In this document: positions 40,485-47,951 of the stretch, piece after piece | Position numbering within the stretch: position 1 is the first letter of the stretch | How the letters are laid out: each line of letters begins with the position of its first letter | Source: Sarea resinae | Taxonomy: Eukaryota | Direction of reading: 5' to 3' | Assembly: GCA_026026165.1 (NCBI GenBank) | Contig: JAPEUD010000073.1 | Location: 1 to 64,000 of the forward strand | DNA length: 64,000 nt | Position numbers and translations under genes: made by a program | The notes under the pieces: generated by a model | Database searches by the model: none | What the model was told of the DNA's origin: nothing | Seen by the model: only the letters and a program-made list of their open reading frames with translations

Positions 40485-41050
40485 GGGCAGTCCGCGATTC
40501 CCGACGCACGCAGTCCCAAGCCAGCCCGACGAGACGAGGCAAGACGGGCCAACTGTGAGAGGGATGAAGGCGGGGAGGTGGGAGAGAGAGATCCTCGCCG
40601 GAGGATCGAGGAAGAGGTGTTGATACTCACCAGAACGTCTCCTCGGGGTGAGAAGAGTGAGAAGGGTTTGATTGAATGGGGAGATTGTGGGGAAGATCAC
40701 AGATTGGCGCAAATCTTGACGCTGTGTCGAAGTGCAGGAAGTCGAACAACGACGTTGGATGACTAAGCCACTCTAAGCTTCACTCTACTCCGGAGTAGTG
40801 AGAGAGGAGAAAGTACAGCGTGCAACCTTAATTGTCTGAAGGTGAAGCGGGTAAGACGGCGGGGTTGGACCACGAATCTGACGGATCAAGGATCTACGAC
40901 AATATGCATGATTCTACACATGATGAGGGTTGATCTACAGAAGATGGCAAATCAATCAATCAATCGATCAACCACCCCTTCAATCGACCAGAACCGGTCC
41001 ATGATCTGTTCGCCAGGACGACGAATGCATCTCCAGCGCGGTGCAAAGGG

Positions 41051-41132
41051 AAGAGGAGAGAAGAGAAGAGAGAAGAGAAGAGAGAAGAGGAGAGGAGAGG
41101 AGAGGAGAGGAGAGGAGAGGAGAGCAGAGGAG
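41051..41132. repeat. Polypurine (GAGAA/GAGAG)n tract upstream of acrB
   Basis: Tandem pentamers; CT-rich on the acrB sense strand. Confidence 0.85.
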
Positions 41133-41777
41133 AGCGTTGTCGATCATCTTCAATCCCGCTCCTCCCTCTTTCCTCTTTCGTCCTTCCCTCGACAGTAACC
41201 GGGAGAGGCTTCGGCTTCGGTAAAATGATACCAATAAGGCATGCAATCCTCCATATTGACATGCAACCATGACCATTCGAGTAAGCCTCCTGCGTAGAGT
41301 CGGTGTGACAACGAGGGGAATCGACCAAATCGGAATGTGTCACCATTGATGTGCAGCATTCGAGATGGTGACCGTCTACTATGTAGTAGGTCTACAGCGA
41401 GTACAGCGTCAACAATCACGAGGGAACGCCTGCTACCTGCATTCCCTGATGCATCATCTTCTTTTCGCGAGTACCATGTAGAGTGAAAATGCATCATGCA
41501 CGACCTGCCCATTGTCCAATACCTTTCTTTGAGCGTTACCTTGCAAAGCACGGGAGTTCTCGATCACCATCCAATCCCTCCAGCCTGGTGTCTATGTATG
41601 GGTGCCCACGATCCAGAGTCTGATCCAACGCTCGACATGCCGCTTCCTAACCCATGTCCCGGAGAGAATTTGTCATCTTTCGTCGTCGAGAAAAGTGCAC
41701 ACGGTCCATCGTCTGATACCATAACTCATCCATGGCATCATGAGGTTGCGCGGCGGTGCTGCCTTGTGCTCCAGCAC

Positions 41778-42945
41778 TCAAGTGCCAGCGCTGCCAAAAT
41801 CTTCCCTTGCATCCTCTCTGTCCCAAGTCTCCTTCTCCAATACTTCGACGCGTGCCATCAAATCTGCAATCCTCTCCTGTCCGTGCTTCTTGGCTTCTTC
41901 TTGCAACTCAAAGGTCTCCTTGAATCTGTCGACCATGAAAGGCTTCAGAGGTATTTTTTTCATCTGCCGATAATCGTACAAGACATTGTCCTCGACACAT
42001 CTCGCTGCAGCTCGTTGATGGAGTTCCGATAAGATGATAACGTCAAGTATGAACGAATCGTCAGTCGAGGAGGGAGATGAGCGGAGCTTGTGGTAAACGG
42101 AGATATGATCAGGGTAAGTTATTGCCTGCCTTATCCATTACTGATTGGCCCTGTAGCGTTTAGTAGGAGGTAAGATTCGCACAAATTTGAAGTCTGTACG
42201 GATGCTGCGCATTATTAAGCCACTGTCACGAGGAGTCCAGAGTGCGCTCCATTCCCGCTGGTGCTCACGGTCTATGTAGATGGCGAAATTTCGAGCCCAA
42301 TTGACACGTGCCGATTCGGCATAACGCACGTAATTCACGTTGTTGACGTGACCTTTATACCAGAATTAGAGCTTCTTATATCCAGAATCGTCATGGAAAC
42401 GATGTTATACCCTTATATAGAATTTAGCTGATCGAGAAAATGCAGACGCCTTTGTGCGCGCAAACAGGTGGGGTCAGCCTTACCATTGAATCCTAAAATG
42501 TAGTATTGTGAGCATTGTCAGCGGCCAGTTGCTTGAATCTTCAAAAAGCATATCCTCTTTTCGGAGATGCTATAGGTAGTAGGCCTACCATCTCACCCCA
42601 CACGACACTCTGTCTGTATAAACCCTCTCGTCCCTTGCTCGTGAGGAAGCCTTCGCTGCCTGCGACTAACTCTCTCCAATCTCGTGCTATTACTTGAAGT
42701 ACACTCCCCGCCTCTTCGACCTGTTTCGGGTTGAGACCAAACGTGATGCATTTACCTATACGATGCTTCAACTCCGAAAGCCAACGGGGATTCAGATTAG
42801 CGGCCAACGGTTTGGCGGGGCCAGCGTTCAATGGCAGTATGGCGGTTGTGGAGAAGGCGTGCCTGTTCGCAACAGCGGTTCGAAGGGCACCTCTGGTTGG
42901 TGGAGCCAGGCACAGCAGCCTTCGGGACAAGTGCTGTAGTGGCAT
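41778..42945 (-). CDS. Mitochondrial hotdog-fold (4HBT-like) acyl-CoA thioesterase family protein
   Basis: Proposed exons 42945-42589, 42492-42484 (9 nt), 42411 (1 nt), 42352-42183, 42125-41778. This gives presequence + VVWGEMDSMGHVNNVNYVRYAESARVNW..IMRSIRTDFKFAITYPDHISVYHKL. Confidence 0.82.
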
Positions 42946-43346
42946 CGTCAAAGACCCAATCCAAGCAAGTGAAGTAGGCGAATGTGAAGATTGAATGGAG
43001 AGCGGTGAGTATCTCTTTATCGATATATCGAATGGCAGCCTCGGCCTCGGGGCTCGCAGTGTACGCCGGAGCTCGGGTAAACAAAGGCCCCGTCATCGAC
43101 AACATTGGATGCGCCCGACGGAAGACGAAACCGACTCCCGCCCGAGTTCGATACCCGGGCGTGGACCGCGGCGTGAGAAGTGACGCATTCGAGCATCCCG
43201 TCGGGTGCTGTGTTTAGCACCCACTTACCTACCTCCTTGTCTACATAAGGCGTCATTTTTATCCATATTCCTCTGCCGTCAGGCTCAATGCATCATCCTT
43301 CTCGGGATTTCATGTCTGATCTTTCATGATCCGGGCCAGACAAACT

Positions 43347-43895: not shown

Positions 43896-45047
43896 TCACC
43901 AGGCGCGTTTCCGTCCCCACCAAGCGCCAATTTCCAGGCATTCTCCAGCAACGCCTGTCCCGGTATTGCCCCATAAATCGTGCATCATGCCGGACCACCA
44001 TCGATCCCATTCGTCCTGGCTCTTCCCGGCCGCTTCTTTGAGCACTGGCTCCAAGCTCTCGATCATTTGCACAACGGCTAGTAAAGAGGTCCGTCTCAAG
44101 GCAGCTTGATCGGCAGTCAGTCCTTTACCCCCTGCCTGTATACTGTCGCGCTCCCAAGTCATCTGGCCAAGTGGAACCGCTATCCTTCGGTTCCTTAGCT
44201 CCTTGAGTTCGTCCATTTCCTGTAGAAATATAGGCCCAACTAAAGCGCAAGGACAGGACGATAGTCTTCGTTTCTCGAGGGCCTTTTGCATCCAATCGCT
44301 ATATTCTCGTAGAAAGGGATTTTGCGCCGCCGTAAAAGGTGTTTGAGAGGAGATCGTAAAGGTGCCCGTAGCATCGGCATGCCACTGTTCCTCCTCGACC
44401 AGGTTAGGAGCTGGAGACGGCTGTGTCCGAATTGTTCGGATGATATGGTCCGACTCCCACACTTCTAGTACTCCTTCGGGTCTCAAGATGCGCAAAAACT
44501 CATCAATCAACGGTTGCCAGCTTGCTCCCGGCGGCACACATTGGCTAAGACCTTTCACGAAGACCAGATCAAAGTCTTCATCCACAAATGGAAAAGGTAG
44601 ATCTCGCAAGTCATGTTGCACAAATCTCCAATCGATGCCTTGATCTCGCAAGTCTGGTGCCAATGGTGCCATGTCCATGCCGGTGAAGGAGATGTTGGTG
44701 TGTCCCAGCTTTTTGAAGTAGTCGTGACATGCCGAAGTCCACAAGCCAGTCCCACATATCACTTCCAGGACCTTCTTGGGCGGATTGGTCCGTAGAGACG
44801 GTGCACATATGGGGACACCGAAAACGTTCGTCAATAAGATAGTGCGGAGATTCTGCCGGTGTAATTCCACGAGGTCGCAAGGAAGAGGGTAAGGAATGGT
44901 GGAATCGCGGAGAAAGCGACGGCCATTGCGAAGCACGTAGGAGGGGTGATGATGTTCAGGAACAAGACCAAGAACGGTGGTCCTGCTGGAGGATTGACTG
45001 GACGGTGCCGAATTGATCGCACGTGCCGCCGGTTTGTTTTGCATCAT
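43896..45047 (-). CDS. SAM-dependent methyltransferase-like protein (LaeA-like class I fold)
   Basis: NGRRFLRD..YPLPCDLVELHRQ, VLEVICGTGLW, FTGMDMAPL, FVQHDL..PFVDEDFDLVF, RILRPEGVLEVWE. Confidence 0.82.
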   Translation of the reverse strand: MMQNKPAARAINSAPSSQSSSRTTVLGLVPEHHHPSYVLRNGRRFLRDSTIPYPLPCDLVELHRQNLRTILLTNVFGVPICAPSLRTNPPKKVLEVICGTGLWTSACHDYFKKLGHTNISFTGMDMAPLAPDLRDQGIDWRFVQHDLRDLPFPFVDEDFDLVFVKGLSQCVPPGASWQPLIDEFLRILRPEGVLEVWESDHIIRTIRTQPSPAPNLVEEEQWHADATGTFTISSQTPFTAAQNPFLREYSDWMQKALEKRRLSSCPCALVGPIFLQEMDELKELRNRRIAVPLGQMTWERDSIQAGGKGLTADQAALRRTSLLAVVQMIESLEPVLKEAAGKSQDEWDRWWSGMMHDLWGNTGTGVAGECLEIGAWWGRKRAW

Positions 45048-47951
45048 GGTGGCATCCTCGCTCGGCTCTTTCTCTGTTGATGGAAGCTTGGCTCACGAGG
45101 AGGCTCGCTCTTCGCTTTCGCCTTCACAACAGGGGGAGGCAGAGGAGGATGAGTATGGGGGGGGGGGGGGTTTGTGGTTGATGACAGCAGCGATTCTCAC
45201 GGTCTGGGAGTTCCTGGGGAGGGATGGAGCGTGTGGAGGACAGAACGTCCCATCACTTTTACAATTACATTGGGACCGAAACAACAATCATGCCCACTTG
45301 AGACACCATGCCCTAGAATGGCATCCTTTTTTTTCGCTCTCAATTTTTTTTTCCGCCTTTGAGCAGGGAAGGACGGCTCTCTCGGTAACTACCCTCCCTC
45401 AGGAATAGAGCATGCGGGTAGGCGGCTTCAGGAGCAAACGGGGCCCAGGTATGCGGAGTCCCTACCCAGTCATAGCAGGCATAGCGGGCAAAGCGGGCTG
45501 CAGCAGACATCATGCTCCTCGGCACTGGGCGAGAAGAGCTTCGGCATGACAGGAGAGCAAGGCGTGCCGTGGAAGGCGGAGTAAGGCATGGTACCGTCCG
45601 GGTATGCGCACACAACAGCATGAATGGGATGAAACGTCTGATTGTGTAACGGAAATCTTGCGTGTGGTGGTGTTACTCAACAAGATCAGTTCGATTAGTT
45701 CGATTAGTTCGAGACCATGTCGATGAATGGCCGCAACATGCAGGACGGCCTGGGATGTGATCTGGGTGTGATTTGATCGCTTGGCGCCGCAGAAGACCGT
45801 CCCCGCCGGTCCCAGCCATGTACGGCGGACGGTACAAAGGGAAAGTTGACGGCCCTGGAGAGGGCCAAGGAAACCAGTGGAAGCCCTGGAGGCCCAAGGA
45901 TCTCCAGAACCGGCCTAGGAGTCTTGTCCACTCCGTAGAAGCTTGAACTTTGGATGCCTCGGGGCTCCCGCTCCTTTCGTGTCCGCCTAAAAAGACAGCG
46001 ACAGGAGCCAAGAATTGCACTCGACGTCTGGCGGTGGGTGGGAGGTGTGTACCTTACTCTACTCCGTACTGGTACTGCAGCAAGACCCAGCTAGGGCCAA
46101 GGGGACTTGCTGTTCGTTTAATCATCTCTGGGGTGGAGGGGAATTCCGCGCGACGATCTCCGCCGACTCCCCCCCCGAAATGATCCCCCTACTATCCCTG
46201 GCTCGACTCGGCCGAGAGCTACGCAGTACGATGGAGGAGAAGTCCAAGTACCTGCTCTGCCGCTACGAACGGTGTGGAAAGTAAGTTCCAAGGTGCCTAC
46301 GCCGAGTACTCCGTAGTCCTACTACATAGTACGTAGGCGGCATGGATGGTGCGTACCTCCTGGGCCGTCCCATGCTCAGTTCAACCTTGAAAGGCTCGGC
46401 CATTACATGGATTGAGCATGTCGATGCGGCATGAGAACAGGAGAGTCGACATGGTCGGAGTGAAGGGAAGCAAAAGCAATGGAGTATGGAGAAGATTTCC
46501 CCTACTAACCTAGTGCTATCTGGTTTTAACTTCGTGCCAGTTAGCTGTAGTAGATGCAGCTGCAGCCGCACACGCGCGCGGGGAGGCGGGACGGGCAAAT
46601 GTTGTGACAGCAGGTCGAATCGTCCCGCTGACGCACCTTGGTAAATCTGGAGTTGTGATATGCAGACCCATGCCATCTCTAAAACATAACATTTGATGCT
46701 TCTGTATGTTGTTTGCTGTATGCTGTATCCGTGACCGGGTAAGGCTTTTCTGGTGTTTTCCGCTCCTACGGATAAAGAAACGTCATTGAGGCGTGCTTCA
46801 GCTGCCCAGCCCGGCAGCTAAAGTTATCCTTCGGTAGGGTTCTCTCACAACGCGTTTGCGTTCGGGGTTCTTCAATCTCACCTTGTAGCCGCTGAAGAAT
46901 GAACGGGCACTACCGTATGGCCTCAGGGCTCGCTGAACACCGGATGCCGGAATAGAGAAGGGCTGACAGTAGACCCTAAACTGTACCATATTACCATCAG
47001 GAGAAGCAAAATGCAATTGAGAATCGTCCCTCATTGGATCATACCTAATCGTACCTTGCCCATCCATGGATGGGGGACGTGAATGCGTTATCTGAGTCCT
47101 TGGGCGCCCCTACCGATGTGATACGGAGGCCATTCCCGCCCACAGCGCAGCTGAGTCAGAGAGTTTTCTGCCGCGATCACGTGATAGTCATGTGACGGAA
47201 TGCCTTCCACCTCCTTGAGTCGCAACTCGACCTTCACACAGCAATTCCAAGTTGGCCGGAATTCACGTGACATCTCATCCTCCGACTGTTGGACGTTGAA
47301 CACTTGACGAAAGCGTCTTCATGAGGGTACGCTCTTGCCTCATAGCATCTCCAAGGACCACCATAATCTCAATGATATCTCGCGCACGTTGTCAGGTGCT
47401 ATAGGCCGACCAAGCTATTTGCGTTTGGCGCGTTCAATTCTCCTCGGGTCTGCTAGATCGGTGAGTGGGCATCGCGAGTGTTACAGGTTCGGCTGCTGAG
47501 CCGCCTTTGACCAGCCCACTACAACGTATTGCAGACTAGAGACTCTAACACTGGTCTTGCAGGCAGGTCTCAGAGCTTCACTTGATCAAATCCAAGACAC
47601 CGGACCGTTCTCGACCTTTCTAGAGAGCGACGAGAAGCTGGGCGCCTAGTCAGCAATCGCAATTCCCCGCCGCTCAAACAAGCGCTACGTGCCTTTTTCG
47701 GAGCGATCGCCAGCGCTGGGAGAAAACGCTCCCCCATCTCCTCCGCGGGCAGGGCTCTTTGAAAGCCCTTCACGCTCAGGTCTCGTCCATGCCAGGCAGC
47801 CCGCCGTCGATCCATGTTCAAACGAAGAAGACTGCGGCTCTCATACCTCCCACCACAGACTTAATCCGACCATCGGGCCGCTCACGGCCACGTCACCAGG
47901 GAAACACCTGTTCACGAGCAAACTCTCCGGCTTTCACATCTGCATCATTAG

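Follow-up and report, generated by a model that had tools for sequence, protein, structure and literature searches.

Gene structure and reading frame

The window analysed here, a stretch of 64,000 nucleotides (nt) of Sarea resinae DNA (contig JAPEUD010000073.1, positions 1 to 64,000 of the forward strand), carries on its minus strand a five-exon gene for a predicted thioesterase (Table 1). In this gene the bases encoding the motif D-S-M-G-H-V-N-N are distributed over a 9-nt exon, a putative exon that consists of nothing but the G at position 42411, and the beginning of the exon that follows. This order of a 9-nt exon, a 72-nt intron, a single G and a 58-nt intron had been proposed in an earlier reading of the same DNA (the original prediction), and its letters and coordinates proved exact. 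The 12 bases for Asp-Ser-Met-Gly within WGEM-DSMG-HVNN are split by three introns (96, 72 and 58 nt) in this model. With the G included, the spliced model comprises 885 nt and 294 residues, and its product can be aligned over its full length with orthologs, to which it is 56-62% identical (57% in the case of the database ortholog P0001, with which it shares WGEMDSMGHVNNV identically). The remaining exons and splice sites of the gene are all intact.

Without the single G the reading frame is lost. When the donor at 42483 is spliced directly to the acceptor at 42353, that is, when one intron of 131 nt is removed, the result is ...DSMVTSTT and a stop at residue 128. This donor can also be paired with four other AGs that leave an intron of at least 35 nt (with ends at 42428, 42412, 42375 and 42372), but each of these leads to a stop as well, and all five single-intron joins from the 42483 donor are closed in this way, as the original prediction had stated for the long intron and for the AGs nearby. 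The two-intron path alone restores WGEMDSMGHVNN, the motif that is invariant in orthologs. Enumeration of splice paths in the window, with up to three introns of at least 35 nt and with GC donors allowed, yielded 85 in-frame paths free of stops, exactly one of which, via the 1-nt exon, gives DSMG. With so many in-frame paths, the enumeration does not prove a unique open frame; it shows that DSMG is reached by one path, and the claim that two introns and a single G restore the motif was borne out to this extent.

The two introns in question are complete GT...AG introns lying exactly one base apart, each with its own branch-like motif, the A of which is 12 nt from the 3' end in intron 2 (CTAAA) and 13 nt from it in intron 3 (CTAAT). 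The acceptor of intron 3, ATAAAG, is followed by GTCACGTCAAC. To estimate how often such an arrangement arises by chance, dinucleotide shuffles of the 131-nt stretch were searched for AGGGT with at least 40 nt on either side; it was present in 415 of 20,000 shuffles, and in 146 of 20,000 when an upstream CTRA was also demanded. Per locus, with both parts at least 40 nt long and 20,000 shuffles each, the chance of AGGGT was 2.1%, 2.8% and 3.2%, and 0.7-1.1% together with a branch-like motif. In intron 4, alternative acceptors read in the same stretch lead to stops.

Table 1. Parts of the thioesterase gene and further features of the window (positions are those of the window; splice phases and signals are read on the minus strand).
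Feature	Position	Strand	Description
Exon 1	42589..42945	minus	357 nt; ATG 42945-42943 to ...VVWGEM, then donor GTAGGC
Intron 1	42493..42588	minus	96 nt, phase 0; GTAGGC...CTGAC...TTTTAG
Exon 2	42484..42492	minus	9-nt microexon GATTCAATG, Asp-Ser-Met of the motif; preceded by tttag
Intron 2	42412..42483	minus	72 nt, phase 0; GTAAGG...CTAAA...TATAAG
Exon 3 (putative)	42411	minus	single G that begins the GGT (Gly) codon of D-S-M-G-H-V-N-N
Intron 3	42353..42410	minus	58 nt, phase 1; GTATAA...CTAAT...ATAAAG
Exon 4	42183..42352	minus	170 nt; GT + 56 codons, HVNNVNYVRYAESARVNW...TDFKF
Intron 4	42126..42182	minus	57 nt, phase 0; GTGCGA...GGCAG
Exon 5	41778..42125	minus	115 codons (345 nt) + stop TGA 41780-41778; hotdog C-terminal half + tail
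Arg-rich N-terminus	42840..42945	minus	first ~35 residues; MPLQHLSRRLLCLAPPTRGALRTAVANRHAFSTT
Similar stretches of 14-16 nt	42353..42424	minus	ATTCT(GG)(A)TATAA(A)G, three copies
Neighbouring open frame	43896..45092	minus	398 aa
Low-complexity stretch	41000..41150		GA-rich

Protein family and catalytic motif

The gene product is a predicted fungal (Pezizomycotina) hotdog-fold acyl-CoA thioesterase of 294 residues, a member of family 4HBT_2. When the two large downstream exons were compared separately with Pfam PF13279 (4HBT_2), exon 4 scored above the cut-off of 25.5 bits (26.1 bits, E value 1.2e-5) and exon 5 just below it (24.5 bits, E value 4e-5); the ortholog P0001 matched the same family with 88.6 bits over residues 107-237. 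PF13279 was precomputed in 92 of the 94 homologs from the protein search with exon 5. Homologs were fungal, from Dothideomycetes, lichen-forming classes and Leotiomycetes. Exon 5 is 64-67% identical to its orthologs, and no protein more than 67% identical to it was found in the protein collection, which points to an ascomycete source with no close sequenced relative there; exon 1 is alignable to the N-terminal halves of orthologs.

The five-exon model recreates the DxxGHVNN motif at the start of the 4HBT_2 domain. Across 28 orthologs there is no variation at D113, M115, G116, H117, N119 and N120, and the ortholog motif aligns with WGDMDSxGHVNN of the solved thioesterases 3qy3 and 5byu; DxxGHVNN had been named as the signature of this family from the outset, and these alignments agree with that. 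The Asp of the motif is presumably the catalytic residue. As a separate observation, the N-terminus of the protein (MPLQHLSRRLLCLAPPTRGALRTAVANRHAFSTT) is rich in Arg and without acidic residues, which we take to resemble a mitochondrial targeting peptide, and the N-termini of orthologs look similar.

Comparison across relatives

Orthologous loci were collected by scanning metagenome contigs with an ortholog alignment, which gave 80 loci, 42 of them of fungal type (L001-L042). Between WGEM and HVNN, 30 of the 42 loci have no intron, two have intron 1 only (L030, L031), and two have one phase-0 intron at the position of intron 2 (L027, L042). Six loci (L018-L022, L039) carry a 2-nt exon in the layout ATG/gtgagt...caag/GG/gtgagt...acag/C or T CAT (slashes mark exon borders), and the last two, L024 and L025, have the architecture of the window, i.e. 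intron 1, a 9-nt exon, intron 2, G and intron 3. The position of intron 1 is thus occupied in L024, L025, L030 and L031 as well as in the window, and that of intron 2 is common to L024/L025, the six loci with a 2-nt exon and L027/L042. Intron 4 is missing from L024 and L025.

In L024 and L025 the 9-nt exon reads GATTCCATG and lies between TAG/ and /GTAGG; intron 2 measures 55 and 54 nt and intron 3 measures 51 and 59 nt, respectively, after which the coding sequence resumes with GT CAT. The donors of intron 3 are weak in all three lineages with a 1-nt exon (GTATAA in the window, GTATTG in L024, GTACTG in L025). Alignment of orthologous loci had been recommended together with the original prediction, and it revealed that the combination of a 9-nt and a 1-nt exon is kept in these two diverged loci. 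At all eight loci with an offset, skipping of the micro-exon leads to a stop and its inclusion to an open frame.

L024 and L025 are themselves far apart, with synonymous divergence (dS) of 1.14 and 1.19, which is saturated, and only 54-68% identity in the flanking introns. The ratio of nonsynonymous to synonymous divergence (dN/dS) between them is 0.037 downstream of the micro-exons (163 codons) and 0.045 upstream of them (80 codons). Because this ratio is low on both sides, the gene is functional in the L024/L025 lineage, and both halves must be read in one frame. In a three-way alignment of the window, L024 and L025, the intervening DNA is conserved solely at the splice sites, at CTAA and at AAG/G/GTA. 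A CTRAN motif was found in all 12 sub-introns of six distinct micro-exon loci, with its A located 9-13 nt from the 3' end.

The six loci with a 2-nt exon are 80-93% identical to Aureobasidium proteins. Their GG lies between an intron of 53 nt and one of 62-65 nt (L018:477-606, L019:1751-1878, L021:2235-2361; also L020, L022 and L039), the donor of both introns is a strong GTGAGT, and the Gly codon is completed by the C or T that opens the next exon. In a quick gene tree, in which 21 of 48 inner branches are left open, L018, L019 and L021 cluster with Aureobasidium (support 99), and the window is not sister to L024/L025; the micro-exon cannot be dated from this tree. The window and L024/L025 are therefore apparently not close relatives, as far as so poorly resolved a tree can tell. 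No full-length protein from the L024/L025 lineage or from the species of the window was found in the database protein searches. The closest proteins to the L024/L025 lineage, P0095 (162 residues, 91% identical) and P0168 (91 residues, 100% identical), are fragments sourced from the Joint Genome Institute (JGI), which we take as products of the L025 and L024 contigs, respectively.

Two Leotiomycete-like loci deserve separate mention. L027:263-416 and L042:1111-1264 have a single phase-0 intron of 142 nt and Asn in place of the motif Gly (DVMN-HVNN). In named Leotiomycetes this position varies too (A, S, K, E); elsewhere the Gly is invariant.

Annotation of the gene in public databases

The representation of the motif in public annotation was surveyed in 176 database proteins (P0001-P0176) from two homolog searches. 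The motif is contiguous in 68 of them; in 31, additional or different residues separate WGE from HVNN; in 46, the 60 residues upstream contain no WGE, and many of these proteins begin at or just before HVNN; the remaining 31 are without HxNN. Among proteins containing HxNN, 77 of 145 are garbled or truncated just before the motif. It would seem from this that gene prediction goes wrong systematically in this gene and that micro-exons may have been missed in many Dothideomycetes and lichen fungi. The residues read through in such models (...KG/TG-HVNN, as in Pleopsidium, Candelaria, Hortaea, Zopfia, Lophiotrema and others, and ...NS-HVNN, as in Aureobasidium) fit phase-1 and phase-2 acceptors, which hints at offsets of the kind described above. 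One protein of Aureobasidium melanogenum (P0010) has the correct motif, and several other proteins (P0002, P0009, P0015, P0019 and P0023) are garbled at this point.

Accuracy of the assembly

A check of the reads for a missing base at the last acceptor had been proposed along with the original prediction, and no extra G came to light. In sequencing run X1, unitigs with a word depth of approximately 322-447 cover positions 41700-43300 with 0 differing letters and 0 gaps. A 151-nt contig of depth 2 from run X3, a phyllosphere metagenome, spans 42235-42384 with one substitution and no gap, and its acceptor reads AAAG/GTCAC. In addition, record 7 of run X2, an air metagenome, represents a relative that is 86% identical over exon 4 (42297-42355) and of whose intron 30 letters are visible; they contain a CTGAC branch-like motif followed by aaag/GTCAC, i.e. 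the same phase-1 acceptor as in the window.

Neighbouring sequence

The open frame next to the thioesterase gene contains VLEVICGTGLW, which we take to resemble the glycine-rich motif by which methyltransferases bind S-adenosylmethionine. Downstream of the thioesterase gene lies the low-complexity stretch, of which one strand translates as repeats of the EERRGEERRGEE type and the opposite strand as SSPLLSSPLL.

Weighing of alternative explanations

Together, these data make it very probable that the G at 42411 is a genuine and probably constitutive 1-nt exon of a fungal thioesterase gene. A number of observations weigh against this. The donor of intron 3, GTATAA, is weak and has no G at +5, and three branch-like motifs, the two in intron 2 and one in intron 3, have A instead of a pyrimidine as their last base. 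Nor is AGGGT a rare sequence in introns: one of eight control introns (L030 intron 1) has two copies, although these would leave parts too short to be introns. The intron comparisons drew on the four introns of this gene and on those of relatives. Run X1 is perhaps the source of the assembly and hence not independent of it, and the independent run X3 has a depth of only 2. Evidence of purifying selection comes from the L024/L025 lineage alone, since the species of the window has no available close relative. Finally, inclusion of the G in mRNA is deduced from the DNA, in the window and in L024/L025 alike.

If the true genome had one more G at the last acceptor, a single phase-0 intron would suffice. 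Assembly errors typically look like this, with one base missing from a short run (AAAGG), and X1 may be the very data that were assembled; yet the X1 unitigs agree with the assembly at every base of 41700-43300, there is no gap at the site in the X3 contig, which comes from another study, and the same deficit recurs in L024 and L025. Because the reads agree and two other assemblies show the same one-base deficit, an indel artefact is effectively excluded, its probability being close to negligible. Slightly less remote, though still very improbable, is a single non-canonical intron (GT...AA ending at 42354, or one whose donor is moved by one base and starts in TA), or ribosomal frameshifting or editing once splicing is over, with no 1-nt exon at all. 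Such a process would produce the same mRNA or protein without so extreme an exon, and the junction G could be assigned to either side. The 3' end of this intron would, however, be AA in the window and CA in L024/L025, in each case one base short of a canonical AG, and we know of no such class of introns. It would also leave unexplained why AAG/G/GTA, with a branch-like motif 11-12 nt upstream, is the sole conserved island in the middle of the intervening DNA, and why the Aureobasidium-like loci, which need two bases, have exactly AG/GG/GT.

A recent frameshifted pseudogene or dead allele, in which a single 131-nt intron is spliced and the internal AGGGT is coincidental, would fit the weak intron-3 donor and a splicing pattern that we infer from the letters, and AGGGT does occur by chance in about 2% of shuffles and in one control intron. 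We nevertheless regard it as improbable: L024 and L025 share the one-base offset and AAG/G/GTA, and on either side of the offset purifying selection on their coding sequence is strong (dN/dS 0.037 and 0.045 at dS >1), the other exons and splice sites of the window are intact and its protein aligns end to end with orthologs, and the 86%-identical relative in X2 has the same phase-1 acceptor. The last alternative accepts the 1-nt exon as real and makes its skipping a regulated off-switch for the enzyme, with the frameshifted mRNA degraded by nonsense-mediated decay (NMD). With skipping, translation would end prematurely at residue 128, ahead of intron 4; the weak intron-3 donors conserved in three 1-nt lineages could allow tunable inclusion; and when potato invertase was given an artificial 1-nt exon, 33% of the transcripts lacked it, as cited in a passage of PMC4674806. 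A premature stop, however, follows automatically from any frameshift, L024 and L025 lack a downstream intron, both introns of the Aureobasidium-like loci start with the strong donor GTGAGT, and published 1-nt exons are described, in the parts of the literature drawn on here, as constitutive or accurately spliced. The off-switch advanced in the original prediction is therefore left without support, and we consider it unlikely, albeit less so than a dead allele.

Proposed splicing and origin of the exon

For a constitutive 1-nt exon, we propose that each of the two short introns would be recognised separately by intron definition and that they would be removed one after the other, in a manner like recursive splicing except that one base is retained. 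Removal would have to be successive because two spliceosomes cannot sit one base apart. Either order of removal would give the same mRNA, with the predicted junction ...GATTCAATG-G-GTCACGTC...; joining the 42483 donor to the 42353 acceptor would instead give a frameshifted mRNA and a product of 127 residues without the hotdog/thioesterase domain. Whether or not intron 2 has already been removed, the donor of intron 3 has an equally poor exon context, and the order is not predictable from it. Of the ordered splicing suggested in the original prediction, succession is plausible on steric grounds, as has been argued for Arabidopsis, whereas no particular order is shown by the present data.

As to its origin, the 1-nt exon may be ancient and shared by descent across Dothideomycetes and lichen-forming ascomycetes, that is, at the level of classes, with the GG of Aureobasidium being the same exon after a one-base shift of the downstream intron; we rate the chances of this as somewhat below even. 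If true, it would provide a natural series from a phase-0 intron through a 1-nt exon to a 2-nt exon, in which an intron is split and slides around the smallest possible exon, and a shared ancient micro-exon would account for about half of public thioesterase models breaking here. No stwintron intermediate for the one-base shift of intron 3 was seen among the loci compared.

A tandem duplication was considered as the source of intron 3 and rejected: the best match, between the 3' end of intron 2 and an internal 14-nt stretch of intron 3, was equalled in 84 of 2000 shuffles and is thus weak, and no similarity of this type is apparent by eye in L024 or L025. On the minus strand of the window, intron 2 has one of three similar stretches of 14-16 nt (Table 1) at its 3' end, and intron 3 has the other two, one internal and one at its own 3' end; the three could be small duplications or merely similar splice signals.

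The thioesterase micro-exon is of interest in that it is conserved over deep divergence, stands beside a 9-nt exon and falls within a catalytic motif. Its 2-nt counterpart in Aureobasidium-like DNA offers a practical route to the use of adjacent splice sites, the order of intron removal and the movement of an intron by one base; Aureobasidium can be cultured.

Comparison with known systems

Exons of 1 nt have already been published in Arabidopsis, Coprinopsis and Fusarium, and the thioesterase locus is an added, unusually well conserved case of this very rare class. The locus would be assigned to the class by its sequence: both the exon and its AG/GT boundaries are conserved in orthologs, as G in L024 and L025 and as AG/GG/GT in six Aureobasidium-like loci. 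The literature searched on fungal thioesterase microexons or on 1- and 2-nt exons yielded no paper on this gene, though the supplements of the Fusarium and Coprinopsis studies could list related cases.

The closest parallel is found in the CYP621A P450 genes of Fusarium, where, according to the sections drawn on here, the 1-nt exon is likewise the G of AGGGT within the Gly codon of a conserved motif (Nelson & Syed 2026, PMC12940212). Both are fungal genes with U2-type introns, in both the short flanking introns jointly resemble one intron of about twice the usual length, and both exons were found through a mismatch of exon phases and conservation in orthologs after having been overlooked by gene predictors. 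The two cases differ in that the gene described here encodes a hotdog thioesterase and not a P450, that its G is the first base of the codon and not the central one, and that a further 9-nt exon lies directly upstream, which puts three introns within 12 coding bases. The layout here, moreover, spans lineages with approximately 60% protein identity and exists in a 2-nt variant. On the other hand, the Fusarium exon as described has the support of reads in the SRA, while the thioesterase exon is known at the level of genomic DNA.

For Arabidopsis APC11, a constitutive 1-nt exon between two spliceosomal introns has been described, and intron definition with successive removal of the two introns is invoked there, as in our proposal (Guo & Liu 2015, PMC4674806, in the part consulted). 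APC11 is a plant gene in which splicing was demonstrated experimentally with GFP fusions and in which the identity of the nucleotide was irrelevant; in the thioesterase gene the window, L024 and L025 all have G, which also belongs to both splice-site contexts. The long-read annotation of Coprinopsis cinerea lists 13 1-nt exons in 13 genes and 57 2-nt exons in 50 genes, and leaving out such ultra-short exons creates premature stops (PMC12230235). This is a genome-wide catalogue for a basidiomycete, the passages of which on ultra-short exons contain no cross-species conservation.

Stwintrons, to which the original prediction had related the locus, share with it the occurrence of complex intervening sequences in Pezizomycotina and the consecutive splicing (Fekete et al. 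2017, PMC5587772, as described there in part). Discordant introns that lie one base apart in orthologs, explained there by stwintron intermediates, recall intron 3, which follows G here and GG in the Aureobasidium-like loci. In a stwintron, an internal intron lies within the donor, branch point or acceptor of an external one, and the canonical signal of the external intron arises once the internal one is excised. The relation does not hold: neither thioesterase intron splits a splice signal of the other, each has a GT, a branch-like motif and an AG of its own already in the unspliced sequence, and the base between them is kept as exon. The locus is no recursive splice site with an exon of zero length either, because AG/G/GT keeps one base, which is needed for the frame. 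Recursive splicing at ratchet points, which is named as a model in PMC4674806, uses adjacent 3' and 5' splice sites in two successive reactions, with no base kept and in very long introns. The thioesterase introns, at 58-72 nt, are short and one base is retained between them, but here too a 3' site adjoins a 5' site, and the way in which the thioesterase exon is spliced probably resembles such stepwise recursive splicing.

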